This document shows positions 31,025 to 64,000 of a stretch of DNA of 64,000 nt, in pieces. The notes below the pieces were generated by a model. The model did not search any database. It was not told the origin of the DNA and was given only the letters and a program-made list of their open reading frames with translations. Location: positions 696 to 64,695 of the forward strand of contig DATJLQ010000007.1 in the NCBI GenBank assembly GCA_035509415.1, given 5' to 3'. Each line of letters starts with the position of its first letter. Within the stretch, counting starts at the first letter, position 1. This DNA is from Alphaproteobacteria bacterium (GTDB taxonomy: Bacteria; Pseudomonadota; Alphaproteobacteria; JACZXZ01). Both the position numbers and the translations under genes were made by a program.

Positions 31025-31097
31025 CGCGCGCCCCGAAATCCGAAGAATTCCAGCGATCATTGCGCGCCCGAGCGCGCGCCCCCAGAGGAGAACGACC

Positions 31098-33647: not shown

Positions 33648-34394
33648 ATGGCCGAGATTCTCGCCCTCATTCCCGCGCGCGGCGGGTCGAAGTCGATCCC
33701 GCGCAAGAACCTGCTCCCGCTCGCGGGGCGGCCGCTCATCGTCCATTCGATCGAGCAGGCGCGCGCCTCGCGCCTGGTTTCGCGCGTGATCGTCACGACC
33801 GACGACGCCGAGATCGCGGCGGTCGCCAAGGCGGCGGGTGCCGAGGTGCCGTTCTTGCGGCCCGCCGAGCTCGCGCGCGACGACTCCCTCGACATCGAGT
33901 TTCATCGCCACGCGCTCGACTGGCTCGGCGCGCAAGAGCGCTATCGGCCCGACGCCGTCGTCAATCTTCGGCCCACCAATCCGACCCGGCGCCCCGCGAC
34001 CATCGACCGCGCGATCGAGACGTTCCTCGCCCATCCCGAGGCGGATTCGCTCCGCTCGGTCTCGCTCGCCGAGCAAACGCCCTACAAAATGTGGCTCATC
34101 GGCGCCGATGGCTGCTTGGCGCCGGTGGCCGCGCTCCCGGGCACGACCGAGCCCTACAACCTTCCGCGCCAGCGCCTGCCGCTGGTCTATTGGCAGAACG
34201 GCTATGTCGACATCGCCTGGACGCGCACCGTGATGGAGAAGCAATCGACCACGGGGACGCGCATCCTGCCCTTCGTGATCGAGGAGCGGAGCGTCGACAT
34301 CGACTATCCGGACGAGGTCGCGGACGCCGAACGCGCCATCGCCGAGGGCGACGCCGAGGCGAACGGCTCGGCCGGAAAGCGTCACCCGTCATGA
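33648..34394 (+). CDS. Acylneuraminate cytidylyltransferase-family protein (third paralogue).
   Basis: N-terminal LALIPARGGSKSIPRKN. Confidence 0.8.
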   Translation: MAEILALIPARGGSKSIPRKNLLPLAGRPLIVHSIEQARASRLVSRVIVTTDDAEIAAVAKAAGAEVPFLRPAELARDDSLDIEFHRHALDWLGAQERYRPDAVVNLRPTNPTRRPATIDRAIETFLAHPEADSLRSVSLAEQTPYKMWLIGADGCLAPVAALPGTTEPYNLPRQRLPLVYWQNGYVDIAWTRTVMEKQSTTGTRILPFVIEERSVDIDYPDEVADAERAIAEGDAEANGSAGKRHPS

Positions 34395-40475: not shown

Positions 40476-40511
40476 GAGGGCCGGGTTCGCGCCGCGAATC
40501 CGGCCTTTTTT
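40476..40511 (+). terminator. Rho-independent terminator between the convergent GT2 gene and lptD.
   Basis: GC-rich hairpin GGCCGGGTTCGCG/CCGCGAATCCGGCC followed by TTTTTTATT. Confidence 0.5.
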
Positions 40512-42756
40512 ATTGGTTGTTGCTGTTGCTGTTGTTGAGGCTGCCGCCGATCGGGATCGTGGTGAAGCTCTTGAAGATCAGCGTCACGAGGATGCTGGTG
40601 CTGGGCATGACGGGGCCGCTTTGGGTGTAGCTGCGCGAGAGCACCGCGGTCATGTTGAAGCATTCGTCGTCGTAGATCGCCGACGCCGAGATGCTGCTCA
40701 AGCGGCCGACGGTGAAGTTGTAGACGGTGCCGGAAGTGGCGCTCCAATGGTCGGTGATCTTGACGTTCGGCGTGAATTGCCCCTCCTGCACGCCCTGGAT
40801 GCCGACCCCCGGCACCTGCTGGGTGACCGAGAGGTAATTGGCGCTGAGCGTGTAGCCCGAAGGGCCGAGCGTCGCGCTGACGAGCGTGCTGCGCGGCGAG
40901 AAGTCGGTCGGCGAGAGCAGGTAGCGGTAGGTGACGTCGACGTCCTTCAAGGGCTTGATCTGCACGTGGCCGACATAATCCGACTGGTGGCCCGAAAGGC
41001 CGGAGTAGGTGGTGAACGTGTCGTCGGTGTGCGGCCGGTAGAGCTGGCCGAAGAACATGTTGGCGGTGCCGCCCTTGCTGCCGTAGGCGCCGATGCTGGT
41101 GCCGTAGATCACGCGCTCGCCGCCGTCGACTCGGTCGACGCCGGGAAACGGATTGAGGTTGTACATGTTCGTGTCGTCGAGCTCGAAGGCGAGGCTGTCC
41201 TGGTTCGGGATCAGGAAGCTGTTGCGACCCTGGGGACCGCCGATGAACGCGACGTGCGGCTCGATCAGCTCCTCGACCGTACCGGCCTGGCGCACCCAGG
41301 GATAACGCCAATCGAGCTTGATCTGGGGCAGCATGCGCCCCGCCGAGGTGTCGGTCCTGAGGGCGGTCGGGTTGTTCGGGTTGATGTTGTCGCTGGTCGA
41401 GTAGCCGTCGGTCTCGAAGCTGAGGGCGAGGTCGTACATCTGACCGTCGGACGCGGTGTAGGGCAGGTCCCACTGGGTGCGTTGAGACAGGCGCCGCGAG
41501 TCGACGCCGACCGGCGTCGAGAGGTTGAGAGCGCTCGCGTCGACGGTCCAGCGCTGGCCGTGCGAGCCCGGCTCGCTCACATAGTTGAACTGGTAGGACG
41601 GCGCGATGACGGGCAGCGTGTCGGTCGGCACGGTCGTGCGCAAATCCTGGAACGCGTAGGCATCGAGCGAGTTGTAGCTGCGGCCGAAGAATCCCTCGGC
41701 ATAGGCGCGCGAGGTGAGCAGCGTGCTGCTCGGCGCGGTGAGGAGCTTGTAGTAGGCGATGTAGGTCTGGGTGGTTTCGCGATAAGCGTCGAAGCCGGCG
41801 CGCCAATTGTCGTTGATGTCGACGATGCCGCGCGCGTTCACGTTGCCGCCGATCGAATCCTGGTGGCTGTCGAGGGGCGAGCTGGCCCCCGTGAGGCTGC
41901 CCTGGACGTCGAGCGCCGCGTCGCCCCAGCGCTCGCGGTACTCGCCGTCGAACACCTGGCCGCCCTTGGTGGTGAAGATCGGGTTGAGCAGCACGTCCTT
42001 GTCGGGGCCGAGGGTCTGGAAGTAGGGCACCTGGATCAGCGTGCCGAGTTGGGTGCTGACGCCGTAGGTGGGCATCAGGAAGCCGCTCTTGCGCTTCACC
42101 GTCGGGTCGGGGAACTGGAAGTAGGGCGTCCAGCCGACCGGGACGCCGAACATCTCCATGGTCGCGTCCTCGAAGCGGATCTCGTGGTCGGTGTCGTCGT
42201 GGGTGATGTCGCGCGCCTCGACCTGCCACAGGGGTGCGCGCGTCGGGTCCTTCTTGCACGGCGCGCACAGCGAATAGACGCCGTTCGCCATCTCGGTGAG
42301 GTTGCCGTTGCCGCCGAGGCGCGCGCCGGTCGCCGCCATGCGCGCGTGGTCCGAAAGCAGCAGGCGGAAATCCTGGATCGCGCCCTGCTTCAGCCCCTCG
42401 CTCAGCTCCATGTAGCTCGCGAACACGACGTCGCCGTCGGGCTGCAGCAGGCTCACATTGCCCGACGCGGTCACGAGATCGACGCGCTGGTTGTAGGTGA
42501 CCGTGTCGGCGAGCAGCACGCGCTCGTTCTGCGAGATCTGGACGTGGCCGGAGGCGACCACGATGCCGAGATCCTGGTCGTAGGAGACGCGGTCGGCCTT
42601 AAGCAGCGCCGGTGCCGAGGAGCGGGTGAGCTTGCCGCCGTAGCCCGGCGACTTCGACTGCGACGGGGGCGTGCCGGGTGTGCCCTGGGCGCGCGCCAAG
42701 GGCGCGAACAGCACCATGAGCCCGCATAGCAGGAGTGCCGGGAAAGTCCGCCGCAC
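40510..42756 (-). CDS. lptD: LPS-assembly outer-membrane protein LptD (OstA).
   Basis: 748 aa. Signal peptide, N-terminal OstA domain and a large C-terminal beta-barrel. Confidence 0.9.
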   Translation of the reverse strand: MRRTFPALLLCGLMVLFAPLARAQGTPGTPPSQSKSPGYGGKLTRSSAPALLKADRVSYDQDLGIVVASGHVQISQNERVLLADTVTYNQRVDLVTASGNVSLLQPDGDVVFASYMELSEGLKQGAIQDFRLLLSDHARMAATGARLGGNGNLTEMANGVYSLCAPCKKDPTRAPLWQVEARDITHDDTDHEIRFEDATMEMFGVPVGWTPYFQFPDPTVKRKSGFLMPTYGVSTQLGTLIQVPYFQTLGPDKDVLLNPIFTTKGGQVFDGEYRERWGDAALDVQGSLTGASSPLDSHQDSIGGNVNARGIVDINDNWRAGFDAYRETTQTYIAYYKLLTAPSSTLLTSRAYAEGFFGRSYNSLDAYAFQDLRTTVPTDTLPVIAPSYQFNYVSEPGSHGQRWTVDASALNLSTPVGVDSRRLSQRTQWDLPYTASDGQMYDLALSFETDGYSTSDNINPNNPTALRTDTSAGRMLPQIKLDWRYPWVRQAGTVEELIEPHVAFIGGPQGRNSFLIPNQDSLAFELDDTNMYNLNPFPGVDRVDGGERVIYGTSIGAYGSKGGTANMFFGQLYRPHTDDTFTTYSGLSGHQSDYVGHVQIKPLKDVDVTYRYLLSPTDFSPRSTLVSATLGPSGYTLSANYLSVTQQVPGVGIQGVQEGQFTPNVKITDHWSATSGTVYNFTVGRLSSISASAIYDDECFNMTAVLSRSYTQSGPVMPSTSILVTLIFKSFTTIPIGGSLNNSNSNNQ

Positions 42757-42762
42757 GGCCTC

Positions 42763-43866
42763 TTACCCGTCCTCGAGATGGAACAGGACGGCGCTGCCGA
42801 GCAGCGTGCTCGCACCCGCCGGACTCCACGCCGCGAGGAAGATCGGAATCGTGGCGCTGAGGCCGAGCGCGAACACCACGTCGGAGAGGAAGTAGATGAG
42901 GAAGCCGGTGAAGACGCCGAGCGCGATCAAGAGCAGCGTGCCGCCGCGCCGCTGGTGGCGCAGCGAGAAGCTCGCGGCGATCAGCACCATGGCGCATTGG
43001 AGCAGCGGGTCGGCGAGCAGCGAGTTCCAATAGAGCCGGTGGCGCTGGGCCGAAAAGCCCGCGCGCTGGAGCACGTCGATGAAGCGCGGCAGGTCCCAGA
43101 ACGAGATCGATTCGGGCGAGGCGAAGCTGTTCTGGATCTCGTTGAAGGTGAGCTCGGTCGGGACGCGGAGCGTCTTCTCGAAGCGCGGCGGCCGGTCGGG
43201 CGACGCGCGCCAGGCGTTCGTGAGGTCCCAGTCGCCGGCCTTGAGCCGTGCGCTCGTCGCGTCGATGCGGCCGACGAAGCGGTCGTTGGCGCCGAAGCGG
43301 AAGAAGGTCACGTCGTGGAGCTCGAAATTGTTGAAATCGTGCGACGTCACGCGCAGCGCGTGCACGATCACGTCGCCGCCGGGATCGTTCTCGCGCAGCC
43401 AGAATCCGGTGTCGGAGACCGAGAGCATGCTGGTCTTGCCCTTGAGGTACTTGTTCTCGAGCTCCTCGTAGCGGAACAGCATGGCGGACGCGACCGGGTT
43501 GAGCATGGTGATCTTCGCGACCCCGATCAGGAACGCGAGAAAGAGCGCCGGGAAGATGAACTGCCAGACCGAGACGCCGACCGAGCGCACCACGATCAGC
43601 TCCTGGCTGCGCGTCAAGCGCCAGAAGGCGAGCATGGCGCCGAACAGGACCGCGAACGGGATCACCTGCTCGGTCAGGTGCGGCAGCTTGAACAGCGACA
43701 TCGACAGCACGACCGAGAACACCGCGTTGTCCTTCGAGTTCGCGCGCCGCAGCGTCTCGACCAGGTCGAACAGAAAGCTCACGCTCACGAAGGCCATGAG
43801 GATGGCGCCGAACGCGGCCAGGAACTGGCGTCCGAAATAGATCGAGAGCGTGGGCGAGGTGCGCAT
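42763..43866 (-). CDS. lptG: LPS export ABC permease LptG.
   Basis: YjgP/YjgQ-family permease. Six TM helices with a periplasmic beta-jellyroll. Confidence 0.85.
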   Translation of the reverse strand: MRTSPTLSIYFGRQFLAAFGAILMAFVSVSFLFDLVETLRRANSKDNAVFSVVLSMSLFKLPHLTEQVIPFAVLFGAMLAFWRLTRSQELIVVRSVGVSVWQFIFPALFLAFLIGVAKITMLNPVASAMLFRYEELENKYLKGKTSMLSVSDTGFWLRENDPGGDVIVHALRVTSHDFNNFELHDVTFFRFGANDRFVGRIDATSARLKAGDWDLTNAWRASPDRPPRFEKTLRVPTELTFNEIQNSFASPESISFWDLPRFIDVLQRAGFSAQRHRLYWNSLLADPLLQCAMVLIAASFSLRHQRRGGTLLLIALGVFTGFLIYFLSDVVFALGLSATIPIFLAAWSPAGASTLLGSAVLFHLEDG

Positions 43867-43913
43867 CTAGCGCTCCTTCCGCGCGCAGGCGCCGTTCGAG
43901 GCGGCCCGGCGCG

Positions 43914-45059
43914 TCACGGCGAGCCCGCGGCTTCCGCCGGGCCGTCGAGCCCCTCGAACCAGGCCTTGGGGCGGCGCCGCGGCGGGCGCACGAGGTAGAG
44001 GGCGGCGAGCGCGAGCGGCACGAAGCAATTGACGTAGAGGAGCGGGAGGAGCGAGAGGTCCTTCCCGGCGACGTTCTGGATGCCGACCTCGGCCGCCTGC
44101 AGGAAAACGACGCACAGGATCGCGACCAGGACGCGCAGCGTCTGGCCCTGGCGGCTGAAATCGCCCGAGAGCAGGGCCGCGAGCCCGATGAGCGTGAAGG
44201 TGAAGGCGTAGAACGGGCTCACCAGGCGCTGGTGCGCCTCGACGATGAGCTGGCCGAAATAGAACCGGTCGTTGGCATCGTTCATGTTGGGATGGAGCAG
44301 CTCGCCGAGGAAGCGCTCCTGGGGCCGGCGCCATTGGTTCTCGATGCCTTGGGAGAGCCAGCTCAAATCGACGCTGTACCGGTCGAAATAGAGGATCGAG
44401 AGGCGGCCGTCGGTGGGGTTCACCTCCTGGCGGTTGCCGTTGAACAGGACCACGCGCGGCCCGTCGGGCGAGGAGATCAGCTCGCCGCGCTCGGCGGTGT
44501 AGGTCACCGGACGTTTCGGGTTGCGCATGTCCTCGACCAGGATGCCCGCGAGCTCGCCGTCGCCGACGCGCGAGCGCACATAGACCGTGAGCCCGTCGCC
44601 GATCGTGTTGAACTTGCCCTCCTGCAGCAGGAGCGCCGAGAAGTTGTTGTGGATCGCGAACTCGAGGTCCCGGAAGTCGCGGTACGAGGCCGGGAGGAAA
44701 TAGAGGTTGATCGCGTAGGCGGCGACCAGCACGACGCCCGCGATCGCCAGGGCCGGAAGGGCGAGCGACATCTGGCTCACGCCGATCGAGCGCAGCACCA
44801 CCAGCTCGCGGTCCATCCAGAGCTTGTTGTAGGTGAACAGCACCGAGCTGAAGAGGGCGATCGGCAGCACGATCGCGAGGAAGCTCGGCAGCAGGAGCGC
44901 CGTGAGGTAGAGGAAGGTGCCGAACGAAATGCCCTTGTCGACGATCAATTCGACGAAGCGCAGCGACTGGGTGAGCCAGATGGCGCAAGTCAGGCAGAAG
45001 CTGACGAACAGCATCGCGACGAGAAGCTGCTTCAGAATGTAACGGCCGTGCGCCTTCAT
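43914..45059 (-). CDS. lptF: LPS export ABC permease LptF.
   Basis: YjgP/YjgQ family. Start at the internal ATG 45059 (MKAHGRYILKQLL). Confidence 0.85.
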   Translation of the reverse strand: MKAHGRYILKQLLVAMLFVSFCLTCAIWLTQSLRFVELIVDKGISFGTFLYLTALLLPSFLAIVLPIALFSSVLFTYNKLWMDRELVVLRSIGVSQMSLALPALAIAGVVLVAAYAINLYFLPASYRDFRDLEFAIHNNFSALLLQEGKFNTIGDGLTVYVRSRVGDGELAGILVEDMRNPKRPVTYTAERGELISSPDGPRVVLFNGNRQEVNPTDGRLSILYFDRYSVDLSWLSQGIENQWRRPQERFLGELLHPNMNDANDRFYFGQLIVEAHQRLVSPFYAFTFTLIGLAALLSGDFSRQGQTLRVLVAILCVVFLQAAEVGIQNVAGKDLSLLPLLYVNCFVPLALAALYLVRPPRRRPKAWFEGLDGPAEAAGSP

Positions 45060-45294
45060 GGAAGGCTTTATAACCCGGCGCGCGCTTCCTGGATAGGCCG
45101 AAATGCCGCGCTTGCCCAAGAGGTTAGGCGCTCCGGGCGAAGGCGCGGCGCCTTGCAGGACGGGCCCATGCCGTCATGCTTGCGTAAGCGTGCCGGCGGC
45201 CGCGCGCACCCGACGCGCGGCGTGCGCCTGTGTCGCGCAAAAAAGCGCGCGGGCGACCCGGGCGTCGTCGATCCGGATCGCCCGCGCGAGACCG

Positions 45295-45540
45295 CTACTC
45301 GGCGTCGGTTTCCTCGAACTCCTCGATCTCGCCGTGATGCTCGGCGTGCAGCTTGCCCGCTTCGCCCGCATGGTGCTCGGCGTGAAGATGGTGGCCGTGG
45401 GCGACATGCGCGTGGTGCGCCGCCGTCTCGTGCTCCTCGTCCTTGTGGAGCTCCGCCGCGCGGCGGTGATGGAGTGCCGCCTGCTCGTGATGGTGGGCGG
45501 CGGTCTCGTGGTGCTGGGCGAGCTTTTCGACGTGCTTCAT
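45295..45540 (-). CDS. Histidine-rich small acidic protein (81 aa, about 28% His). Putative metal-binding or stress protein.
   Basis: AGGAG RBS 8 nt upstream. The sequence has HH/HHH runs (MKHVEKLAQHHETAAHHHEQAALHH...HAEHHAGE...). Confidence 0.6.
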   Translation of the reverse strand: MKHVEKLAQHHETAAHHHEQAALHHRRAAELHKDEEHETAAHHAHVAHGHHLHAEHHAGEAGKLHAEHHGEIEEFEETDAE

Positions 45541-45686
45541 GGGATGTCACTCCTAGGGGGACGCGGACCGTCCGTCCGCGCCCCACCCTTAGGAGCTTTG
45601 GATTGCAGCGAGGGCGCCGATTCGAAGTCGCGTCGGCCGCAATTCGGCGACGGGTTCGTGATGGTGCCGTGTCGCTTTCGCGTCGC

Positions 45687-46556
45687 CTAGAAGCGGCCCG
45701 CCTCGTAATCCTTGAACGCCTCGAGGATTTCCTCGCGGCTGTTCATGACGAAGGGGCCGTAGCGCACGACCGGCTCGTCGAGCGGCTGCCCCGCGATGAG
45801 CAGGAGGCCCGCCGCCTTGCCGTGGGCCGCGACCGCCAGCGTCTCGCCGTCGGAAAGCAGCGCCGTCGTCCCGCGCGGCACGATCTCGTCGCCGATCTTG
45901 GCCTCGCCCTTGTAGACGTAGGCGAAGGCCGTGTGGCCGGGCGTCACCGGCACGGTCCAGGCCGCACCTTTGTCGAGGCGCAGATCGAGGAACTCGGGCG
46001 CCACGTCGATGCCGCGCACCGGCCCCTCGACGCCGCCGACCTTGCCCGCGATCACGCGCGCGAGCACGCCCGGCGCGGGCTCGATCTCGGGGATCTTGCC
46101 GGCGGCGAACTCCTGGTAACGCGGCGCCCGCATCTTGTCGCGCGCGGGCAGGTTGACCCAGAGCTGGAAGCCCCACAGCAATCCCTTTTCCTGCTCGGGC
46201 ATCTCGGAATGGACGATGCCGCGGCCCGCGGTCATCCATTGCACGTCGCCCGCCTCGATCACGCCGTTGTGACCCTTGTTGTCGCCGTGGCGCATCTTTC
46301 CCGCGAGCATGTAGGTCACGGTCTCGAAACCGCGATGGGGATGCTCGGGGAAGCCGGCGATGTAGGCGCCCGGATCATCGGAGCGGATCTCGTCGAGCAG
46401 AAGGAACGGATCGAGCTCGCTGAGGCGCGGATTGCCGATCGCGCGGTTGAGGCTGACGCCGCCGCCGTCCTGGGTCGGCATCGCCGGTATCGTCTTGGTA
46501 ACGCCGCGCGCGGCTCGCGTGCCCGCGGCGTCCTTGGTCTTGGTTTCCGTGGCCAT
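45687..46556 (-). CDS. Pirin-family protein (bicupin).
   Basis: Motif FPEHPHRGFETVTYMLAG with the His metal site. 289 aa. Confidence 0.85.
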   Translation of the reverse strand: MATETKTKDAAGTRAARGVTKTIPAMPTQDGGGVSLNRAIGNPRLSELDPFLLLDEIRSDDPGAYIAGFPEHPHRGFETVTYMLAGKMRHGDNKGHNGVIEAGDVQWMTAGRGIVHSEMPEQEKGLLWGFQLWVNLPARDKMRAPRYQEFAAGKIPEIEPAPGVLARVIAGKVGGVEGPVRGIDVAPEFLDLRLDKGAAWTVPVTPGHTAFAYVYKGEAKIGDEIVPRGTTALLSDGETLAVAAHGKAAGLLLIAGQPLDEPVVRYGPFVMNSREEILEAFKDYEAGRF

Positions 46557-46618: not shown

Positions 46619-47242
46619 CTAGACGTAACCGAGGCTTTGCAGCACCTCGGCGCTGCCCTCGAGGATCATGTTGATCGCGACCAAGGCCACCGCCGCGAGG
46701 CCGACATAGACGAGCCATGGATAGCGCCCGAGATAGCGCGCGATCGCGTGCGCCGCGAACGCCATGAGGGCGATCGAGAGCGCGAGGCCGATGCCGAGCA
46801 CCCAGGGATGCTGATGCGCGGCCCCCGCGACCGCGAGCACGTTGTCGAGCGAGAGCGACAGGTCGGCGAGCGCCACCTGGAAAATCGCCTGGCGCATGGT
46901 CTTGGGTGCCTGGCGCGACGCCGGCTCGGACCCCGCGTTTGTCGGCGGCGCCAATTCGTGGCGCGTCTCGCGCCAGATCTTCCACGCGACCCATAGAAGA
47001 AGGAGGCCGCCCGCGAGCGTGAGCCCCACGATCGCGAGCAGCGGCACCGCGACGAAGGCGAGCGCCACGCGCAGAAGGGTCGCGAGTGCGACACCGTAGA
47101 AGATCACGCGCCCGCGGCGCTCGGGCTCAAGGCCGCTCGCGGCGAGGCCGAGGATGATCGCGTTGTCGCCCGACAGCACGATGTCGATCACGATCACCGC
47201 GCCCAGGCTCGCGAGGGCGGCAAAATCGAATTCCGGGCTCAT
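46619..47242 (-). CDS. TerC-family integral membrane protein.
   Basis: Duplicated TerC motifs LSGDNAIILG and LSLDNVLAV. Confidence 0.8.
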   Translation of the reverse strand: MSPEFDFAALASLGAVIVIDIVLSGDNAIILGLAASGLEPERRGRVIFYGVALATLLRVALAFVAVPLLAIVGLTLAGGLLLLWVAWKIWRETRHELAPPTNAGSEPASRQAPKTMRQAIFQVALADLSLSLDNVLAVAGAAHQHPWVLGIGLALSIALMAFAAHAIARYLGRYPWLVYVGLAAVALVAINMILEGSAEVLQSLGYV

Positions 47243-47440
47243 GGCCCGGAAATCCTACACCATTCGGGGTGCCGACGGTCGAGCGGCCAAACCCGGCGGC
47301 CGAACCCGGCCGAGCGAGACCCGGCGGGACGAGATCGGGCCCAAATCCCGGTTGCGACGCCGCCTGACTTGTGTCAACCAACCGGAGCCGGGCCGCCGGT
47401 CGGTCAATAGAAGTCCCGCGGCGCGGCAGGAGAGCCCATT

Positions 47441-48562
47441 TTGGTAAGCCGCATCACCGCGATCTACCGCATCGAGAGCGACGCGCACGCGATCGGCGCG
47501 CGCGCCCAGGCGCTCGCGGTCGAGCAAAGCGTAGAGATGCCGGTCGCGGCGATCGACGACCGCATGGTGCTCGACGAGATCGTCGGGCGCATCGAGGGGA
47601 TCGAGGAGTTGGCACCCGGCCGGTTCGAGGTGCGTATCGGGCTCGCGGTCGCGACCACCGGCCCCGAGGTCGGCCAGCTCATGAACATGCTGTTCGGCAA
47701 CAGCTCGATCCACCCGGACATCGAGCTCCACGACGCGATCCTGCCGCCCGAAATCCTGACCGCGTTCGGCGGGCCGCGCCACGGGCTCGAGGGATTGCGC
47801 GCGCGCGTCCGCGCCGAGGGGCGCGCCATGACCTGCTCGGCCTTGAAGCCGCAGGGTTTCGCGCCCGCGCGCCTTGCCGAGCTCGCGCGGCGCTTCGCTC
47901 TCGGCGGCATCGACTACATCAAGGACGATCACGGCCTCGCCGACCAGGCCTATAGCCCGTTCGACGAGCGCGTGGGCGTCTGCGCCGAGGCGGTCGCGAA
48001 GGCGGCGCGCGAGACCGGCCATCCGACGCGCTATTTGCCGAGTCTCTCGGGCGATCTCGACCGGCTCCGGGCGCAGGTGAAGCGCGCGCGCGCGGCCGGG
48101 CTCGACACACTCCTGATCGCGCCGCTGGTCGTGGGGTTGCCCGCGTTCCATGCGTTGGTGCGCGAGAATCCGGACATGGCGTTCATGGCCCATCCCGCAC
48201 TCGCGGGCGCCGCGCGTTTCGCGCCCCCACTTCTGTTGGGAAAGCTGTTTCGGCTGTTCGGTGCCGACGCGACCGTGTTCCCGAATCACGGCGGCCGCTT
48301 CGGCTATTCGCGCGAGACCTGCGCGGCGCTGGCCGACGCGGCGCGCGGCGCCTGGGGTGCGCTCGAGCCCGCGGTGCCGGTGCCCGCGGGCGGGATGACG
48401 CCGGAGCGCGTGCCGGAGATGCTTGACTTCTATGGGACCGAGGTCATGCTCCTCATCGGCGGCGGACTGCTCGCGGCGCGCGAGCGGTTGACCCAGGAGA
48501 CGGCGGCGTTCGTCGCGCGCGTCGCCGAGATCAAGGGCACGAGCCGCGGGCGCAGGCGATAG
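47441..48562 (+). CDS. RuBisCO-like protein (form IV RLP).
   Basis: RuBisCO large-subunit barrel with the GGIDYIKDDHG motif, but no canonical carboxylase active-site set. 373 aa. Confidence 0.8.
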   Translation: MVSRITAIYRIESDAHAIGARAQALAVEQSVEMPVAAIDDRMVLDEIVGRIEGIEELAPGRFEVRIGLAVATTGPEVGQLMNMLFGNSSIHPDIELHDAILPPEILTAFGGPRHGLEGLRARVRAEGRAMTCSALKPQGFAPARLAELARRFALGGIDYIKDDHGLADQAYSPFDERVGVCAEAVAKAARETGHPTRYLPSLSGDLDRLRAQVKRARAAGLDTLLIAPLVVGLPAFHALVRENPDMAFMAHPALAGAARFAPPLLLGKLFRLFGADATVFPNHGGRFGYSRETCAALADAARGAWGALEPAVPVPAGGMTPERVPEMLDFYGTEVMLLIGGGLLAARERLTQETAAFVARVAEIKGTSRGRRR

Positions 48563-48571
48563 TCGAGGCCA

Positions 48572-48622
48572 GGCGAACGTCGTGACTGGGCGAACGTCGT
48601 GACTGGTCGAACGTCGTGACTG
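48572..48622. repeat. Tandem direct repeat, 3 x 17 bp (GGCGAACGTCGTGACTG), between the RLP and cupin genes.
   Basis: Seen directly. The third copy has G to T at position 2. Confidence 0.85.
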
Positions 48623-48649
48623 GGCCATCGCCGTAAGAGGGCGGAAGCC

Positions 48650-49168
48650 ATGAGCGTCGATCTCAAGAACAAGAGCAAGACCGTATCCGCGCGCGCGGCG
48701 CCGACGCGCGACGACGATGCGCGTTTCCGCGCCTTTGCGGACGGCTTCGAATGGAGCGGGGTCGAGCGCCTTCCATACAAGGAGGAGGGCAGCGCTCCCT
48801 TCAAGTCGATCTCGCGCCAGATTCTGTTCGCCGACCCGAAGCTCCACTGCGAGCTGCGTTATTTCGAGATGGCGCCGGGCGGCTACTCGACCCTCGAGCG
48901 GCACGAGCACGTGCATGCGGTGATGATCCTGCGCGGCCGCGGCGAGTGCCTGCTCGGGAATTCGGTGCGCGCGGTGAAGACGAACGACCTGATCTCGATC
49001 CCGTCGATGACCTGGCACCAGTTCAAGGCCTCGGCGGGCGAGCCGTTCGGCTTTCTCTGCATGGTGAATGCGGAGCGCGACAAGCCGCAGCTCCCGAGCG
49101 CGGACGAGCTTGCATCCCTCAAGGCCGACCCGCGGCTTGCGGCGTTTCTCGCCAATTATCGCTCTTGA
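48650..49168 (+). CDS. Cupin-domain protein.
   Basis: Cupin motifs (TLERHEHVHAVMILRGRG). RBS AGAGGG upstream. Confidence 0.75.
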   Translation: MSVDLKNKSKTVSARAAPTRDDDARFRAFADGFEWSGVERLPYKEEGSAPFKSISRQILFADPKLHCELRYFEMAPGGYSTLERHEHVHAVMILRGRGECLLGNSVRAVKTNDLISIPSMTWHQFKASAGEPFGFLCMVNAERDKPQLPSADELASLKADPRLAAFLANYRS

Positions 49169-49746
49169 AGTACGTGCGCGCGGCTCAGGCGGACGCGCCC
49201 TCGGTCGCCGCGATCTTGCGCCGCACGGCGACGCGCGCCTCGCTCACGGTGCGGAACGCGCTGCCGTCGAGCCCGTCGAGCGGCGGTACCGACGAGTAGA
49301 ACAGGAATCCCTCGCTCGCGCGCACCAGAATCCCGGCGGGCGCCCCGAGGAGCGTGAAGATCACGGTGTCCGACTTGCGCATTCGCTCGATCCTTGGCCC
49401 GTTTCCTCGCGCGGCAGGTCTCAATTCCTTGCCGGACCAGACTCGCGCCGCCGGCCCGACTTCGGACCGACTCTTCACATACAGGAATTTCGTGACATTC
49501 CTGCGGAAGCCTGTCGAGCCTACGGCCGGGGGCCGGGTTTTAGGGGGCGCTGTCTAGCATAGTTTTGATCTAGATCAAAAATCTTTCCCCATGCTGCAGC
49601 GCGACGACGGCTCTGCCACGGCGCGCGAATGGGGGCGCTGCGGCGCACAATCGCCGGGAAACGACCTGACGACATCGTGCGAACCATGCATAATTCGCAA
49701 GGCAAGCTTGCGCGCGCCTTCGGCGGCCTAGGAGCGGGACGATCCC

Positions 49747-51750
49747 ATGAAGATCAAAAAGACGCGGGCCACGCCGTCCCGGAAGAAGATCGCGAAGGGT
49801 GCGCCGCAGCGCGAACGCCGGCGCGGCGAGGTCGCGGCCCTGCGCACCGAGCTCGCGACCAGCGAGGCGCGTTTCAGCTTGCTGACCGCGATCGCGGCAG
49901 CCCCCATCCTGCTGCTCACGCCGGCGCTCGAGGTATTCGAGATCAACGACGAGGCCGAGGCGGTCTACGGCCGCCGGCGCGCCAATCTCGTCGGGCGCGA
50001 TTATTTCGCGGCCCTCGATCCCGAGCGCATCGGCGGGCTCACCGAATCCGATTTCGATGCCGTGCTCGCGGGGCGCACCGTGCGCGGCGTCGAGGGTGTG
50101 GTGCGCCGGCCCGACGGCAGCGAGCGCGCCCTCCTGTGGAACGCGAGCCGGCTTCTCGACTCGGCCGGCCGCGTCCTCGGCATCGTCGCGGTCGCCCAGG
50201 ACGTGACCGAGCGGCGCCAGGTCGAGGAGGCGCTGCGCGAGCGCGAGGCGCGGCTGAGCTCGATCATCGCGACGGCACCCGACGCGATCATCACCATCGA
50301 CGGGCGCGGCACGATCCAGTCCTTCAGCATCGCCGCCGAGAAGATGTTCGGCTACGAGGCGGGCGAGGTGATCGGGCGCAACATCAAGATGCTCATGCCC
50401 AATCCCTACCGCGACCGCCACGACGGCTATCTCGCGCGCTACCGCCGCACCGGCGAGAAGCGCATCATCGGCACCGGCCGCGAGGTCGAGGCGCAGAAGA
50501 AGGACGGCAGCGTGTTCCCGATGGAGCTCGCGGTGGGCGAGGTCAAGGTCGGCGGCACGCGCATCTTCACCGGCTTCATCCGCGACCTCTCGGCGCGCGC
50601 GCGCATGGAGGCCGAGCTGCGCCAGGCGCAGAAGATGGAGGCGGTCGGCCAATTGACCGGCGGCGTCGCGCACGACTTCAACAATCTCCTGACCGTGATC
50701 ATGGGCAATCTGGAGATGCTCGGAGACCGGGTCGTGTCGGCGGCCGAGCGCGAGCTCGTGGGCGAGGCGCAGGAGGCGGCCGAGCTCGGCGCCCAGCTCG
50801 CGGGCCGCCTCCTCGCCTTCGGCCGGCGCCAGGCGCTGAGCCCGAAGCCGATCCAGTTGAGCGCGCTGGTCAAGGACATGGTCGTGCTGTTGTACCGCTC
50901 CCTCGGCGAGACGGTGCGCATCGAGACGCGCCTCGCCCAGGATTTGCCGCTTACCCTCGCGGATCCGGGACAGGTCGAGAACGCGCTCCTGAACCTCGCG
51001 ATCAACGCGCGCGACGCCATGCCCCAGGGCGGCCTGCTCACGATCGAGACCGCGACCGTCGAGCTCGGCGTCGAGGACGCCGTCTATACCGAGATTCATC
51101 CCGGCCGCTACGTCATGCTGGCGGTGATCGACACCGGAATCGGCATGCCGCCCGAGGTCGCCGAGCGCGCCTTCGAGCCCTTCTTCACGACCAAGCAGGC
51201 GGGGCTCGGCAGCGGCTTGGGCCTGAGCATGGTCTATGGCTTCGTGCGCCAGTCGGGCGGTGCCGTGCGGCTCGAAAGCGCTCCCGGGCGCGGCACCACA
51301 GTACGCATGTTCCTCCCCGTGGCGCCCGACGAGATCCCCGCGACCGACGAGCGGGGCGGCGAGACGTCGCAGTCGGTCGGCGGCGGCGAGACCATCCTCG
51401 TGGTCGAGGACGATGCGCGCGTGCGGCGCGTCTCGGTGCGGCACCTCGAGGCGCTCGGCTACAAGGTGATCGCGGTCGAGGACGGGCCCGCGGCGCTCGC
51501 GTTGCTCGACGCCGGGACGCCGGTCGATCTTCTCTTCACCGACGTCGTCATGCCGGGCGGAATGAGCGGGCTCGATCTCGCGCACGAGGCGCGCGCGCGC
51601 CGGCCCGAGCTGCCCATTCTCGTGACCTCTGGCTATACCGATCCCGGAACCGCCGAGCGCGGGCTGCCCTCGGGGAGAACCGGCTGGCTCGCCAAGCCCT
51701 ATCAGACGGGCGCGCTCGAGGCGTCGCTACGCGAGCTTCTGGGAGGCTAG
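49747..51750 (+). CDS. fixL: Hybrid oxygen-sensor histidine kinase FixL (heme-PAS, HisKA, HATPase, C-terminal receiver).
   Basis: The FixL heme-PAS signature (FGYEAGEVIGRNIKMLMPNPYRDRHDGYLARYRRTGEKRIIGTGREVEAQKKDGSVFPMELAVGE) is followed by the H-box (VAHDFNNLL), N/G boxes and a receiver (ILVVEDD...DLLFTDVVMPG). The minus-strand ORF 49570-51585 is its antisense shadow. Confidence 0.85.
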   Translation: MKIKKTRATPSRKKIAKGAPQRERRRGEVAALRTELATSEARFSLLTAIAAAPILLLTPALEVFEINDEAEAVYGRRRANLVGRDYFAALDPERIGGLTESDFDAVLAGRTVRGVEGVVRRPDGSERALLWNASRLLDSAGRVLGIVAVAQDVTERRQVEEALREREARLSSIIATAPDAIITIDGRGTIQSFSIAAEKMFGYEAGEVIGRNIKMLMPNPYRDRHDGYLARYRRTGEKRIIGTGREVEAQKKDGSVFPMELAVGEVKVGGTRIFTGFIRDLSARARMEAELRQAQKMEAVGQLTGGVAHDFNNLLTVIMGNLEMLGDRVVSAAERELVGEAQEAAELGAQLAGRLLAFGRRQALSPKPIQLSALVKDMVVLLYRSLGETVRIETRLAQDLPLTLADPGQVENALLNLAINARDAMPQGGLLTIETATVELGVEDAVYTEIHPGRYVMLAVIDTGIGMPPEVAERAFEPFFTTKQAGLGSGLGLSMVYGFVRQSGGAVRLESAPGRGTTVRMFLPVAPDEIPATDERGGETSQSVGGGETILVVEDDARVRRVSVRHLEALGYKVIAVEDGPAALALLDAGTPVDLLFTDVVMPGGMSGLDLAHEARARRPELPILVTSGYTDPGTAERGLPSGRTGWLAKPYQTGALEASLRELLGG

Positions 51751-51901: not shown

Positions 51902-52630
51902 TTAGGCCTCGGTCACCTCGGTCGCGAAGATGTAGCCCGCACCGCGCACCGTCTTGATCAGCTCGGGATGCGCGGGGTCGCGCTCGATCTTGCGCCGGAG
52001 CCGCACGACCTGGGTGTCGATCGCGCGGTCGAACGCCGCCCAATCGCGCCCCTTGACCCGGTCCATGAGCTGGTCGCGGTCGAGCACGCGATTGGGGCTC
52101 GAGACGAAAGCGCGCAGCAACTCGAATTCGCCGCCGGTGAGCTCGACCGGCTCGCCGCTCGCGCGCCTCAATTCGCGCTTCAAGAGATCGAGGCGCCAGC
52201 CCGCGAAGGCGAGCACGTGGCCGCGCTCCGATTTCGCCTCGACCGGCTCGGCCGGCGCGCAGGGGGCGCGGCGCAGCACGCTACGCACGCGCGCCAGCAC
52301 CTCGCGCAAATGGAACGGCTTGGCGATGTAGTCGTCCGCCCCCGCCTCGAGCCCCGCGACCCGGTCGATCGGATCGCCCATGCCGGTCAGGATGATGATC
52401 GGCACCGCCGAGCGCTGGCGTACCTCGCGCGCGAGGCTGAGCCCGTCGTCGCCGGGCATGACGAGGTCCAAGAGGATCAGATCGATCCCGCCCTGGGCGA
52501 ACGCGGCGCGTAGGCCGGCGCCGTTCTCGGCCAGGCTCACGCGCAGGCCCGCCTCCACGAGGTAATTCTGCAGCATGGTGCGGATGCGCTTGTCGTCGTC
52601 GACCACCAGGATATGGGGGACATCGCTCAT
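51902..52630 (-). CDS. OmpR/PhoB-family DNA-binding response regulator (FxkR-like).
   Basis: Receiver (ILVVDDD...LILLDLVMPGDDG) plus C-terminal winged helix (LTGGEFELL...GAGY). Confidence 0.8.
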   Translation of the reverse strand: MSDVPHILVVDDDKRIRTMLQNYLVEAGLRVSLAENGAGLRAAFAQGGIDLILLDLVMPGDDGLSLAREVRQRSAVPIIILTGMGDPIDRVAGLEAGADDYIAKPFHLREVLARVRSVLRRAPCAPAEPVEAKSERGHVLAFAGWRLDLLKRELRRASGEPVELTGGEFELLRAFVSSPNRVLDRDQLMDRVKGRDWAAFDRAIDTQVVRLRRKIERDPAHPELIKTVRGAGYIFATEVTEA

Positions 52631-52828: not shown

Positions 52829-53560
52829 ATGTACGCACACGCCGCCGCTGCCGCAGTTCTCGCTGCGGCTCCCGTCTTCAACCGAGGCGCTTCCGCGATC
52901 TTCCAGGGCACCGAGCGCATGGGCGCCGTGCGCATGGGGGCCGCGGGCACGGTCCAGAAGCTCGAATCGGGCAAGACCCTGTTCGCCGAGGGCGACGACG
53001 CCGAGAACGTCTACGAGCTGATGAGCGGCATGGTGAAGCTCTTCAAGCTGCTCCCCGACGGACGGCGCCAGATCACCGGCTTCCTCTGGTCGGGCGACAT
53101 CATGGGCGTGGCCCATTCCGAGCTCTATCTCTACGGCGCCGAGGCGATCACGGACGTGGTCCTGTGCCGCTACCCGCGCGCGCGCTTCGACGACCTGGTC
53201 GACCAGGTTCCCGGTCTCGGGCGTCGCGTGCTCAAGGTCATCGCGCGCGAGCTGAGTGCCGCGCAGGAGCAGATGCTGCTGCTCGGCCGCAAGACCGCGG
53301 TCGAGAAGATCGCGAGCTTCCTCCTCGACATGGCCGAGCGTCAGCTCGAGCAGCTCGAGACGCGGGGCTGCGTGCTGGTGCCGATGGGCCGCAGCGACAT
53401 CGCCGACTATCTCGGCCTCACGACCGAGACCGTGAGCCGCACCCTCACCAAGCTCAAGCAGGACCACGTGATCGCGTTGCCGAGCCCGGCGCGCGTGACG
53501 GTCGAGAACCGCGATCGCCTCGCGGAGCTCGCTGCGGGGGACGGCGACGAGGATTTCTAA
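52829..53560 (+). CDS. fixK: Crp/Fnr-family transcriptional regulator, FixK-type (no N-terminal Cys cluster).
   Basis: cNMP-like domain (VKLFKLLPDGRRQITGF) and C-terminal helix-turn-helix (RSDIADYLGLTTETVSRTL). RBS GAGGAGGG upstream. Confidence 0.85.
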   Translation: MYAHAAAAAVLAAAPVFNRGASAIFQGTERMGAVRMGAAGTVQKLESGKTLFAEGDDAENVYELMSGMVKLFKLLPDGRRQITGFLWSGDIMGVAHSELYLYGAEAITDVVLCRYPRARFDDLVDQVPGLGRRVLKVIARELSAAQEQMLLLGRKTAVEKIASFLLDMAERQLEQLETRGCVLVPMGRSDIADYLGLTTETVSRTLTKLKQDHVIALPSPARVTVENRDRLAELAAGDGDEDF

Positions 53561-60671: not shown

Positions 60672-60912
60672 GGCGCGCTATCGCGGGTTCTGCGCCGTCA
60701 ATCCGCGACGCGCCTTCGGTCGCGCCCGAACAGGCGCGTCGGCGCCGCCTGGTTCGAGAGATACGGGTCGCGTCCCTGCGAGGGATCGCCCGCCGCGAGC
60801 GTGTCGTGGATCGGCGTGTCCAATGCGGTCACCGGGACGGGCGCTCGGTATTAGGGCGCAAACGCCACCAATGGGCGCTTGGGTTTAGGCATGAGCGGCT
60901 TATCTTGGCACC

Positions 60913-61380
60913 ATGGCCGAGCCGCAAGTCATATACGCACTGCGCAAGAAGCGCAACAAGATCGAAGCCGCGATTGCTGGGTACGAGCGCAAGATCAAGG
61001 AAGCCCAAGCCGACCTGGCGCACGTCACGGCGTCCCTGCGGCTGTTCGAGCTCTCGGGCGACCCGAGCGAGTTCCCGGCCTACATCGACCTTAACCGAAT
61101 CCTGCGGCGCGGAGAGACGACGCGCCTGTGCCTGGACGCCCTCAAGGCCGAAGGGCCGCTCGACACGCGCCAGCTCACCCAGCGCGTCATGGCGACCAAA
61201 GGGCTCAACCAGGACGACCGGGTGTTGGCAAAGGCCATTGCGCTGCGAATCGTCCAAACCTTGCGCGTGAAGGCTCTACGAGGTGGCTTGTTGGACGGTT
61301 CCGAACGCCGAAAGGGCGCATGTGTTTGGCGACTAACGTTGGGGACCACCCGAATTGACGCGCGGCCACGAGAAGGCTAA
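60913..61380 (+). CDS. Hypothetical protein.
   Basis: 155-aa ORF at the boundary where GC content starts to drop. No recognisable family. Confidence 0.4.
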   Translation: MAEPQVIYALRKKRNKIEAAIAGYERKIKEAQADLAHVTASLRLFELSGDPSEFPAYIDLNRILRRGETTRLCLDALKAEGPLDTRQLTQRVMATKGLNQDDRVLAKAIALRIVQTLRVKALRGGLLDGSERRKGACVWRLTLGTTRIDARPREG

Positions 61381-61859
61381 AGCTGGAGTAACTGAGATAT
61401 CACAATATGGTTACAGAGGATCGAAATTGTGGCCGAAAAATATCACGTGAAATCAAAGGATTGCTGGCTTCGTGTCTTTGGGTCCGCTGGAGTTGCTTTC
61501 GTTGCCATTGGCGCTACATCAGATAACCTAGTAAAGTTCCTATGGGGGCCGGGTTATATGTGGATCGTGGGCGGCAGCGTTTTGGCAGCGCTTTGGGCCT
61601 ATGAGACATACTGCTTTTGGGCGCCACAAGATGGATCTTGAGCATCACATCTGCCGGGTTTGTACATTCCTGGGGCGAGATGTCCCATGGGGATTTATGA
61701 TTGCGGCAGCGATCATTTCTATAACGCCTTTGGGAGAGGGCTGGCAGAGGTGGTCGGCATATTTGCTCGCCTTTAGTTTGTTTCTCCTTGCAATCACTTA
61801 TCTCGTAAGGAGATTTGTTCTTTCGCGTCATTAGCCTGGACCTAAGTGGTCTACCCATA

Positions 61860-63000
61860 AATCAGGCGCGCGACGCTCCAGCTGTGCGGACTGCCGATCA
61901 TTATTTGACCGTCAAACGTAACCATGGTTACGTTTATAAGTGGCTTTTTTCTCTAAATGCCGCTGCCAGTAACCACAGAAATCGACTGACGGCTTGCGCT
62001 TCATCGCGAGCGCCGCAATTTGGTTGACCTGATCGCCGTTCGGCGTGCGGCGATTATCTTCACGCCACGATGCCTCTTGTGCGTACCGAAGTAGATAAGG
62101 GCCTGCAATGTGGTGGTGATGCCCAATCTCACCCCGGCGCATGCGGCTAAAAAATTCCTCAGCCCAATTCGTGCATGCTCCGTCGAGGCTGTACGCTTCC
62201 TCGTGATTGATGCGCTTCATTTCGAAGCGGTCGTGTAGTTCGTCCCAGGCACGGGCTTCATCGGCATTGACGGTCGTGCCTTTCGCGATGCGGGACCGAA
62301 TGAAATCAAGCGCCTGCCCTTCGGTACGAAAGACGGCGGGAAGCGAATTGCCGCCACGCTCGCGGATCACCACGACGCATTGGCGCTTCCCGCTCTTGTT
62401 CTGCCACAAGCGCCGATCGCGCCTGTTCTCCCGCTCGTTTGCAGGCTTGACGTAGCCGCCAAAAAATCCGCCGTCGATTTCGCGGGTCTTGCCATCTCCG
62501 CCGACCACGCGCCCTTTCAATTCGCCTGCCATCACTTCGCGCATCTTGTGCGCCAAGACGAAACTGGCCTTGTACGAAATGCCGAGATCGCGGCTAAGCG
62601 CGAGCATGCTCTTGCCCTTAACCTCATTACAGAAAATCGCAATTGCCGCGAGATAGCCGCGCAAGGGCAGTTTGTGTGAAGCGAACAGGGTGCCGGACGT
62701 AACCGAGAAATCTGCCCGGCAGCCCCCGCACCGCCAACGCGGGGCCCCGTGAGGGCGCCGGCAGTCGTACACCTTCGGTGAGCCGCATTTCGGGCGGTAC
62801 GGCGCGCCGTCAGTCTCGGGCCAGCGCACCTTGCAAAACAGCGCTTCCGCTTCGACGTCCGAAAGCCGCATGACCTGGGCCAAGGTCAGGCTTTTCGCGG
62901 CTCGGGACAGGAGGAAGTGCTGTGCCATGGGTGTCATTTATGACACCTACGGGCGGCCTTGTCAAAGGGAAACGTGTCAGATATGCTCCTTTTTAGTCAG
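61860..63000 (-). mobile_element. IS1595-family insertion sequence (approximate extent).
   Basis: Transposase gene flanked by palindromes at 61916-61935 and 62932-62947. Exact terminal inverted repeats were not resolved. Confidence 0.45.
61912..62937 (-). CDS. IS1595-family transposase (ISXO2-like DDE domain with N-terminal zinc-ribbon).
   Basis: Zn-ribbon CGSPKVYDC...RWRCGGCRADFSVTSGTLF plus a DDE_Tnp_IS1595 core. The gene lies in a low-GC segment. Confidence 0.85.
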   Translation of the reverse strand: MTPMAQHFLLSRAAKSLTLAQVMRLSDVEAEALFCKVRWPETDGAPYRPKCGSPKVYDCRRPHGAPRWRCGGCRADFSVTSGTLFASHKLPLRGYLAAIAIFCNEVKGKSMLALSRDLGISYKASFVLAHKMREVMAGELKGRVVGGDGKTREIDGGFFGGYVKPANERENRRDRRLWQNKSGKRQCVVVIRERGGNSLPAVFRTEGQALDFIRSRIAKGTTVNADEARAWDELHDRFEMKRINHEEAYSLDGACTNWAEEFFSRMRRGEIGHHHHIAGPYLLRYAQEASWREDNRRTPNGDQVNQIAALAMKRKPSVDFCGYWQRHLEKKATYKRNHGYV

Positions 63001-63002
63001 GA

Positions 63003-63254
63003 GTGACCCCTTTGGGCCTAGCTAAATCCGAGGCTGAAGTTGCCGAACGCGCATCCCGCTATCTCAAGGCGGAGCTAAAGCGCGCTGGCATTACCTATGA
63101 GGAATTGGCTCAACGATTGAAAAAACATGGTTTACCGGACGAAACCGTTGATTCCATCAAGGCCAAGCTCAAGCGCGGCACGTTTGCCGCGACCTTCTTT
63201 CTGGCTTGCCTCGCGGCGCTTGAATTGGAGGGAGTTCGGTTAGAAGATATTTAG
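63003..63254 (+). CDS. Hypothetical small protein in the low-GC segment.
   Basis: 83-aa ORF, Lys/Glu-rich. No family assignment. Confidence 0.35.
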   Translation: MTPLGLAKSEAEVAERASRYLKAELKRAGITYEELAQRLKKHGLPDETVDSIKAKLKRGTFAATFFLACLAALELEGVRLEDI

Positions 63255-63300
63255 GCAATACTATCCTTTTGAACGCGGTGACCGTATGGGGAGGGCGGGC

Positions 63301-64000
63301 ATGACGCTAAAAGAGCAATGGCGCCACCCCGCTCACATACAGAAGCAAAAGAACGCCGAGAGAAAAGAGCGGGAACGCCAGCAACACAATGACCATATAC
63401 AAATAGTCACTGCGCTTAACCGCATCAGCGACCAACTTGCCGCTGATGAACAGCAAGAGAGTCGCGATCACAGAAAGCGTGCATGTCGTGAGTGGATGAC
63501 TATCATTTTGATTTTTGCGACCGTGACGACGGCCGGAATCGGAGACTGGATATTCTATCTGACGATGCGGGACGCCCGTATCGCTTCTGCTAATCAGCAC
63601 AGTGACAGCACTTCGGTTATGATTGCTGATAGCCGTGCGTGGGTCGGACCAGTCGATTCGAATTTTAGGTCGCCCCCTGTGAAAGATCAGGAAATTATAG
63701 GAATCATTCTTTACCATAATACTGGGCGCGAACCCGGTCAGAACAGTGCACACGACGTAGTTGCGTACATCGGAAGCGTTGCTGATGATAACAGCGGCAA
63801 ACTCACCTCCAAAATCAACCAATATGTGACTAACTGTCTCGCCGCGCCAGAGCACGTGGGAGGGGAGGTAATTTACCCATCGACCGGATTTAGCTCGATG
63901 ACGACTGAATTCCAGGTTCCAAAAGAGGATGTAACCCAAGACGTAATTGATGGAAAAGCCTACATTGTCGTGCAGGGTTGCTTCATCTACAGAACCGCTG
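63301..64000 (+). CDS. Hypothetical membrane-anchored protein (5' partial; continues past the window end).
   Basis: ATG at 63301 preceded by GGGGAGGG. The ORF is open to 64000. A charged N-terminus is followed by a TM helix (WMTIILIFATVTTAGIGDWIFYL). It is more protein-like than the antisense ORF 63307-63939. Confidence 0.45.
   Translation, partial: MTLKEQWRHPAHIQKQKNAERKERERQQHNDHIQIVTALNRISDQLAADEQQESRDHRKRACREWMTIILIFATVTTAGIGDWIFYLTMRDARIASANQHSDSTSVMIADSRAWVGPVDSNFRSPPVKDQEIIGIILYHNTGREPGQNSAHDVVAYIGSVADDNSGKLTSKINQYVTNCLAAPEHVGGEVIYPSTGFSSMTTEFQVPKEDVTQDVIDGKAYIVVQGCFIYRTA

Follow-up and report, generated by a model that had tools for sequence, protein, structure and literature searches.

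A RuBisCO-like protein and cupin gene pair in an uncultured alphaproteobacterium: a predicted 5'-methylthioadenosine-isoprenoid shunt module with a 17-bp tandem repeat in its spacer

A gene for a RuBisCO-like protein (RLP) that is followed at once by a gene for a small cupin raises the question of which reactions the two products would carry out together, and, when the spacer between the genes holds a tandem repeat, what that repeat does. Such a pair was found in a 64-kb stretch of DNA (hereafter, the window) from a metagenome-assembled genome (MAG) contig labelled Alphaproteobacteria bacterium. A preliminary description of this DNA had proposed that the pair is a candidate module of the 5'-methylthioadenosine (MTA)-isoprenoid shunt, and that the repeated units are iterated operator sites. 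From the comparisons given below, we consider it highly probable that the pair is an ordinary copy of the known RLP-cupin module of this shunt and that the repeat is a recent slippage-type expansion.

The RuBisCO-like protein and the cupin

The preliminary description had reported a 373-aa RLP followed by a 172-aa cupin, and both open reading frames (ORFs) were present at the coordinates listed in Table 1. The TTG start of the RLP gene agreed with a full-length alignment to the Rhodospirillum rubrum protein Rru_A1998 from residue 1, and the cupin start was backed by the N-terminus MSVDLK, conserved in the two closest relatives of the locus, L082 and L083 (85% and 81% RLP identity, respectively). 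The two ORFs lie in the same reading frame with their starts 1209 nt apart, and only TAG at 48560 and TGA at 48617 stand between the RLP and cupin frames.

The RLP was 61% identical to Rru_A1998 over 363 aa with one gap, the proteins being 373 and 374 aa long, and it contained the RuBisCO large-subunit catalytic (TIM-barrel) domain (PF00016, E 6.2e-21, 75.4 bits against a cut-off of 30.1). Its best match among solved structures was the short RLP 3qfw (E 2.2e-127, 428 bits); YkrW-type structures reached at most 130 bits, Photo-type structures (1tel, 1ykw, and 2qyg) at most 108 bits, and true RuBisCO at most 93 bits. The same ranking of structure classes was obtained when Rru_A1998 was the query. 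We take 3qfw, as well as 3kgz, a match of the cupin described below, to be Rhodopseudomonas palustris proteins; a literature search gave no confirmation of the organism for 3qfw. RLPs of the DeepYkr clade are 5-methylthioribulose-1-phosphate (MTRu-1-P) 1,3-isomerases (EC 5.3.3.23), which convert MTRu-1-P to 1-methylthioxylulose-5-phosphate (MTXu-5-P) and methylthioribulose-5-phosphate (MTRu-5-P) at a ratio of 3:1. The window RLP is predicted to be a DeepYkr-type protein with this isomerase activity, its placement in the clade being by identity and bit-score ranking and not by a formal tree. A position in a clade with a different function, such as the YkrW enolase or the Chlorobium type, had been named beforehand as the outcome that would speak against the shunt proposal, and it did not occur.

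Catalytic residues were compared within the family and with the Geobacillus kaustophilus enolase 2oek. In an alignment of 19 family sequences that included Rru_A1998, K136, K161, D162, D163, H164, and N87 of the RLP were invariant, and thus the residue check suggested by the preliminary description found every family-invariant position kept (among them K136, KDDH at 161-164, and N87). Alignment to 2oek paired K136 with K147, K161 with K173, and D163 with D175, while H164 stood in place of E176, giving KDDH instead of KDDE, and N87 was found at the position of K98. K136 is equivalent to K175 of RuBisCO, and the activator Lys lies within the KDDH motif. The same combination of KDDH and Asn was also present in Rru_A1998. 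K98 is reportedly the general base of the enolase, and the catalytic roles of these residues are likewise given as reported.

These data bear on whether the RLP could instead be a YkrW/MtnW-type 2,3-diketo-5-methylthiopentyl-1-phosphate enolase of the classical methionine salvage pathway. Its best NCBIfam matches were indeed two MtnW equivalog models, but both scores were far under the curated cut-offs (NF007095, 180 against 409; TIGR03332, 130.6 against 513.6), and Asn87 occupies the Lys98 position. In addition, the RLP is about 40 residues shorter than the enolases, it is much closer to 3qfw and Rru_A1998 than to any enolase in the bit scores and identity given above, and no mtnB, mtnX, or mtnD neighbors were found. 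The sub-cut-off scores and the replacement of Lys98 by Asn87 effectively refute the enolase reading, to which we give next to no probability. A bona fide RuBisCO of forms I-III was ruled out as well, because the scores lay below the NCBIfam cut-offs (111.8 against 497 for form III, and 110.3 against 438 and 55.7 against 489) and the metal site reads KDDH and not KDDE.

The cupin, a single-domain barrel of 172 aa in a family of about 150-170 aa, matched PF07883 (Cupin_2, E 4.1e-11). Its top match in the PDB was 3jzv, deposited as 'uncharacterized protein Rru_A2000' (E 1.4e-57), followed by 3kgz (E 3.2e-55) and 3ibm, and the next unrelated cupin appeared only at E 0.0027. Identity to Rru_A2000 was 60% over 147 aa without gaps, that is, over the cupin core. 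The R. rubrum cupin P0121, named '1-methylthio-xylulose 5-phosphate sulfo-lyase [Rhodospirillum rubrum]' by NCBI, was 100% identical to the sequence recovered from the 3jzv alignment. Across 26 family members, E83, H85, H87, H89, H123, and C137 of the cupin were invariant, and C137 aligned with Cys121 of the R. rubrum protein, which is said to be catalytically important. The top PDB match and the 60% identity bore out the suggested orthology to Rru_A2000, and a loss of the conserved methylsulfurylase residues, the second outcome named as contrary, was not observed, both the His/Glu cluster of the metal site and the Cys being kept. The window cupin is accordingly named here a predicted MTXu-5-P methylsulfurylase of the Rru_A2000 family.

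Gene order and the predicted pathway

Relatives of the pair were collected with a GTDB-wide scan, which gave at least 524 stretches encoding RLP relatives, and a metagenome scan, which gave 351. From both scans 160 loci were kept, and 145 of them had enough downstream sequence for the gene-order test. Identity to the window RLP was at most about 71% among the relatives from the metagenome scan and at most 72% among the GTDB matches listed. The cupin gene came directly after the RLP gene and on the same strand in 144 of the 145 loci (77/77 from GTDB and 67/68 from metagenomes). In the majority of loci, the stop codon of the RLP gene overlapped the cupin start or lay no more than about 10 nt from it; the median distance between conserved end-points of the two genes was 19 nt, and 169 nt was measured in the window. 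No other conserved neighbor of the pair was found among the loci kept. The pairing is an already published, widespread signature of the MTA-isoprenoid shunt, having been described 'in a similar gene organization' in other bacteria (PMC4958253). Its tight linkage in these related loci, drawn from at least 500 matching species-level genomes, supports the use of the pair as an annotation rule. Automatic annotation usually misnames the module; the labels now given to its proteins, 'RuBisCO large subunit C-terminal-like domain-containing protein', 'ribulose 1,5-bisphosphate carboxylase', and 'quercetin dioxygenase-like cupin', mislead carbon-fixation surveys or do not inform them.

The sole recurrent neighbor was a NitT/TauT-type ABC transporter, which flanked the pair in 18 of 80 GTDB loci. 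Its parts were an ABC_tran ATPase, a BPD_transp_1 permease, and an NMT1-like binding protein (examples are L065 6431-7228, L050 3945-4790, and L018 9299-10279). This transporter might supply the pathway with an imported sulfur compound.

By orthology, we infer the following pathway. MtnP and MtnA, whose genes would lie in another part of the genome, would convert MTA to MTRu-1-P, from which the RLP would form MTXu-5-P by a 1,3-proton shift. The cupin, together with glutathione, would then take the methylthio group off MTXu-5-P, giving 1-deoxy-D-xylulose-5-phosphate for isoprenoid synthesis, and this step would also release a methanethiol equivalent from which methionine can be rebuilt. The RLP and cupin genes are presumably co-transcribed. 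The R. rubrum RLP and R. palustris RLP1 share the same activity, with kcat values of 1.2 and 1.3 s-1, at 53% identity, and the R. palustris cupin, 56% identical, is functional in vivo (PMC5893883). Because two RLPs with the same activity are only 53% identical, the window proteins fall within the characterized range.

Upstream genes of the pathway were looked for among 52 hand-picked ORFs of the window. No Pfam match to IF-2B, PNP_UDP_1, APH, or Aldolase_II was found among them, nor was a gene for O-acetylhomoserine sulfhydrylase, mtnP (or mtnN/mtnK), or mtnA. The earlier statement that the window carries neither mtnA nor mtnP is therefore strongly supported by this hand-picked set, which is not an exhaustive one. 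Both genes are unlinked to the pair in R. rubrum (A0360/A0361 versus A1998/A2000) and in R. palustris (RPA4820/4821 versus RPA2169/2170) (PMC5893883, PMC4334135), so that their absence from its vicinity is expected and uninformative.

It could be argued that the pair is orthologous to the shunt enzymes but acts, in this non-phototrophic lineage, on another sugar phosphate, such as a 5-deoxy- or other thio-pentulose phosphate, and not in MTA salvage. Functions vary within the RLP superfamily, neither mtnA nor mtnP was found among the ORFs inspected, and the transporter beside the pair hints at an imported sulfur compound in some lineages, all of which would fit such a role. Nevertheless, an identity of about 60% to both characterized enzymes with every family-invariant residue kept, the activity shared by two RLPs that are much less alike, and the unlinked position of mtnA and mtnP as the rule in model organisms make this alternative improbable. 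The identities to Rru_A1998 and Rru_A2000, with the invariant residues, uphold the proposal that the RLP and the cupin form a candidate MTA-isoprenoid shunt module. This result challenges nothing in current understanding; it extends the many organisms predicted to run the shunt by an uncultured alphaproteobacterium of soil or freshwater type.

The 17-bp tandem repeat in the spacer

Analysis with Tandem Repeats Finder (TRF) confirmed that three tandem 17-bp copies of GGCGAACGTCGTGACTG are located in the spacer just 5' of the cupin ribosome-binding site, as previously noted (period 17, 3.2 copies, 94% matches, score 101). This was the highest-scoring tandem array of the window, where only one other array scored at least 60. 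Copies 1 and 2 were identical, and copy 3 differed at one base. Since both flanking 17-mers (48555-48571 and 48623-48639) matched the unit at 11 of 17 positions, the array may comprise about five units with decayed ends; a four-copy row, at 48553-48620, was also reported by TRF. As 17 is not divisible by 3, the three units together supply every reading frame with a TGA.

The array and the cupin were identical to those of the window in a short JGI metagenome contig, L001, and as this contig is independent, an assembly artefact of a single data set can be ruled out as the origin of the repeat. The spacers of L082 and L083 measured 34 and 49 nt, against 87 nt in the window, and neither the 17-bp unit nor any recognizable similarity to the array was detected in them. 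The window spacer was 53 nt longer than that of L082, which is close to three units. The array was absent from about 160 other RLP-cupin loci, the exact two-unit pattern gave 0 matches in the metagenome collection, and no further copy of the unit was found beyond chance in the 64-kb window, a single match with three mismatches being within the chance range. No sigma-70-like promoter or terminator was found in the spacer, and the minimum free energy of the RNA fold of the repeat was no better than that of shuffled sequences (z = +0.66). The possibility that the leader or spacer encodes a riboswitch or another known RNA was rejected, because no Rfam family reached its gathering score in the window; permissive settings gave sub-threshold noise only.

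The repeat is most likely a neutral, lineage-specific slippage expansion in a spacer that tolerates it. It would have expanded recently, by replication slippage inside a gene junction that is normally very short or overlapping. As a by-product of this expansion, the cupin would be translated from its own Shine-Dalgarno sequence and not through stop/start coupling, and this reliance is likely the only consequence of the repeat.

The preliminary description had proposed, in contrast, that the three units are iterated operator sites, so that a DNA-binding regulator would control the cupin separately from the RLP. Three near-perfect direct repeats just 5' of a ribosome-binding site, an identical array in a second, independent contig, and genes for an OmpR-type response regulator and a Crp-type regulator nearby (Table 1) are what such a proposal would draw on. 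However, operator sites are expected either to be conserved among relatives that share the genes or to recur as a regulon motif, and the repeat did neither: it was missing from the closest relatives, including the syntenic L082 with the same neighboring regulators, and from every one of the approximately 160 other loci, and it did not recur in the window beyond the chance-level match mentioned above. There is also no promoter-like site in the spacer on which a regulator could act. Moreover, a 17-bp period corresponds to about 1.6 helical turns, which would place successive sites on different faces of the helix, an arrangement unfavorable for cooperative binding, and the decayed flanking copies resemble a slippage array and not maintained sites. 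The operator proposal was thus not sustained, and we regard it as very unlikely.

Arrays with unrelated units were observed at the same junction in two other loci. In L011, a 15-bp unit was present twice (7093-7122), and in L065 another 15-bp unit was present in about four copies (5866-5935), each with an ATG, generating four in-frame candidate cupin starts. Three such arrays fell within about 10 kb of junction DNA, while the density over all loci was 0.0465 per kb, a comparison confounded by that of non-coding with coding DNA. The RLP-cupin junction may be prone to slippage.

A further interpretation would be that the array is a recently acquired, lineage-specific regulatory insertion that breaks the ancestral stop/start coupling of RLP and cupin, with its TGA in every frame, and brings in three sites for a protein or a small RNA. 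If this were true, cupin output would be set independently of RLP output, and the duplications in L011 and L065 might reflect recurrent tuning of the RLP-cupin boundary. We hold this interpretation to be very improbable too, and we favor neutral expansion by slippage.

Some points weigh against our joint reading of the pair as an ordinary shunt module and of the repeat as a slippage product. The neutrality of the repeat, which we infer, is an argument from absence. Its history was reconstructed from L001, L082, and L083 only, and the lineage that carries it is represented by two independent sequences, the window and L001, both with three copies, which are too few for copy-number variation to be seen. 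The genomic reach for mtnP, mtnA, O-acetylhomoserine sulfhydrylase, and the methylerythritol phosphate (MEP) pathway was 64 kb. The assignment of the pair rests on pairwise identity, conserved residues, and synteny, an enzyme-specific NCBIfam or Pfam model being absent from the libraries searched, and the activities of both enzymes are predicted only.

Surroundings of the pair and comparison with known systems

The features of the locus and its flanks are collected in Table 1. The order pirin-TerC-RLP-cupin-kinase-regulator was the same in L082, a 1.4-Mb contig, from the pirin to the PAS_5 protein. No evidence was found that links the neighboring genes to methionine salvage.

Table 1. Features of the RLP-cupin locus and of its flanks in the 64-kb window.
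Feature	Position	Strand	Remarks
lptF, lptG, lptD	40510-45119	opposite to RLP	5' of RLP
Pirin	45687-46556	opposite to RLP	5' of RLP
TerC-family membrane protein	46619-47242	opposite to RLP	5' of RLP
RLP Shine-Dalgarno-like AGGAGAG	47428-47434	+	6 nt 5' of TTG; read directly
RLP gene, RuBisCO-like protein, 373 aa	47441-48562	+	TTG start; Pfam RuBisCO_large
Degenerate 'copy 0' of the 17-bp repeat	48555-48571		11/17 matches; includes RLP stop TAG 48560-48562
17-bp tandem repeat, 3.2 copies of GGCGAACGTCGTGACTG	48572-48625		Tandem Repeats Finder; within the 87-nt RLP-cupin spacer
Cupin Shine-Dalgarno-like AAGAGGG	48635-48641	+	8 nt 5' of ATG; read directly
Cupin gene, 172 aa	48650-49168	+	ATG start; Pfam Cupin_2
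PAS hybrid histidine kinase	49747-51750		3' of cupin
OmpR-type response regulator	51902-52630		3' of cupin; further signalling genes beyond
Crp-type regulator	52829-53560		3' of cupin

Two further elements were observed next to the pair. In the divergent TerC-RLP intergenic region, 60-100 nt 5' of the RLP start, an element of the form AAATCCCGGTTG-(about 24 nt)-CAACCGGAG carries 7-nt inverted arms, CCGGTTG and CAACCGG. It was common to the window (47333-47385), L082 (9920-9965), and L083 (about 215-260), and none of 154 other RLP upstream regions had it. The idea of an upstream regulatory element with broad conservation was rejected, as the element is limited to the window and its two closest relatives; it may be a local promoter, an operator, or a leader hairpin, there being no covariation to decide among these. 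On the other side, a 65-aa ORF (MRKSDTVIFTLLGAPAGILVRASEGFLFYSSVPPLDGLDGSAFRTV...) converges on the cupin in the window (49185-49382, minus strand), in L082 (11714-11911, minus strand), and in L001 (828-1025, minus strand). Conservation of this ORF in L082 (85% RLP identity) is high, and Pfam gave no match to it.

Two minus-strand ORFs at 43867-44988 and 45068-45586 have the same lengths as the RLP and the cupin, 373 and 172 aa. They are Arg/Pro-rich, out-of-frame ORFs on the same strand as lptF, in or beside that gene, and typical of DNA with 70% GC; the match in length was dismissed as a coincidence.

Further away, positions 1-40500 of the window hold a large surface-polysaccharide cluster. 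It includes HlyD/OEP export genes, a CysD gene with a CysN/CysC fusion (2498-5199; sulfate activation, NodPQ-like), several GT4/GT2 glycosyltransferases, a DegT aminotransferase, a UDP-GlcNAc 2-epimerase, an ABC exporter, a PhyH dioxygenase, NeuB (30894-31973), and a CMP-sugar cytidylyltransferase (33648-34394). This gene content suggests a sulfated polysaccharide with a nonulosonic acid. At the other end, from 60700 to 64000, GC content falls from about 0.69 to 0.56-0.62, and an IS1595-family transposase is encoded at 61912-62937 on the minus strand; because of the GC drop and the transposase, this segment was probably acquired recently or is mobile.

When set beside arrays of the variable-number tandem repeat (VNTR) type that arise by slippage, the 17-bp repeat shares with them head-to-tail identical units, decayed outer copies, restriction to a lineage, and a position in a non-coding spacer; in L011 and L065, the junction acquired unrelated arrays independently. 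It differs in that the usual copy-number polymorphism was not seen, the two sequences of the lineage being identical.

Like the YkrW/MtnW proteins of Bacillus subtilis and G. kaustophilus (2oek), the window RLP has the RuBisCO large-subunit fold and, by prediction, a role in methionine salvage, and it keeps the carbamylatable Lys (K161, aligned with K173 of 2oek) as well as the Lys upstream of it (K136, aligned with K147). It departs from them in a score of 130 bits only, a shorter N-terminal domain, Asn for Lys98, and KDDH for KDDE, and it would catalyze another reaction with other partner genes.

The R. rubrum locus (L084) has a 374-aa RuBisCO_large gene two genes 5' of the cupin, which is Rru_A1998 by locus-tag order. 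The window pair resembles Rru_A1998/Rru_A2000 in strand, gene order, and protein length, and its cupin shares the E-x-H-x-H-x-H, WHQF, and GFLC motifs with Rru_A2000. The R. rubrum genes, however, are about 930 bp apart, and between them lies an opposite-strand gene for a BrnA antitoxin (L084 7136-7450), whereas the window genes are 87 nt apart and the gap is filled by the tandem repeat. R. rubrum is thus an exception to the near-universal direct adjacency of RLP and cupin genes. The hosts differ as well, as the window comes from an uncultured organism represented by a MAG only, with no sign of phototrophy within 64 kb. The papers cited here report no tandem repeat at the R. palustris junction. 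In its arrangement, the window pair is like RPA2169/RPA2170 of R. palustris, a functional pair in which the cupin gene directly adjoins the RLP gene that precedes it, with mtnP and mtnA unlinked (PMC5893883).

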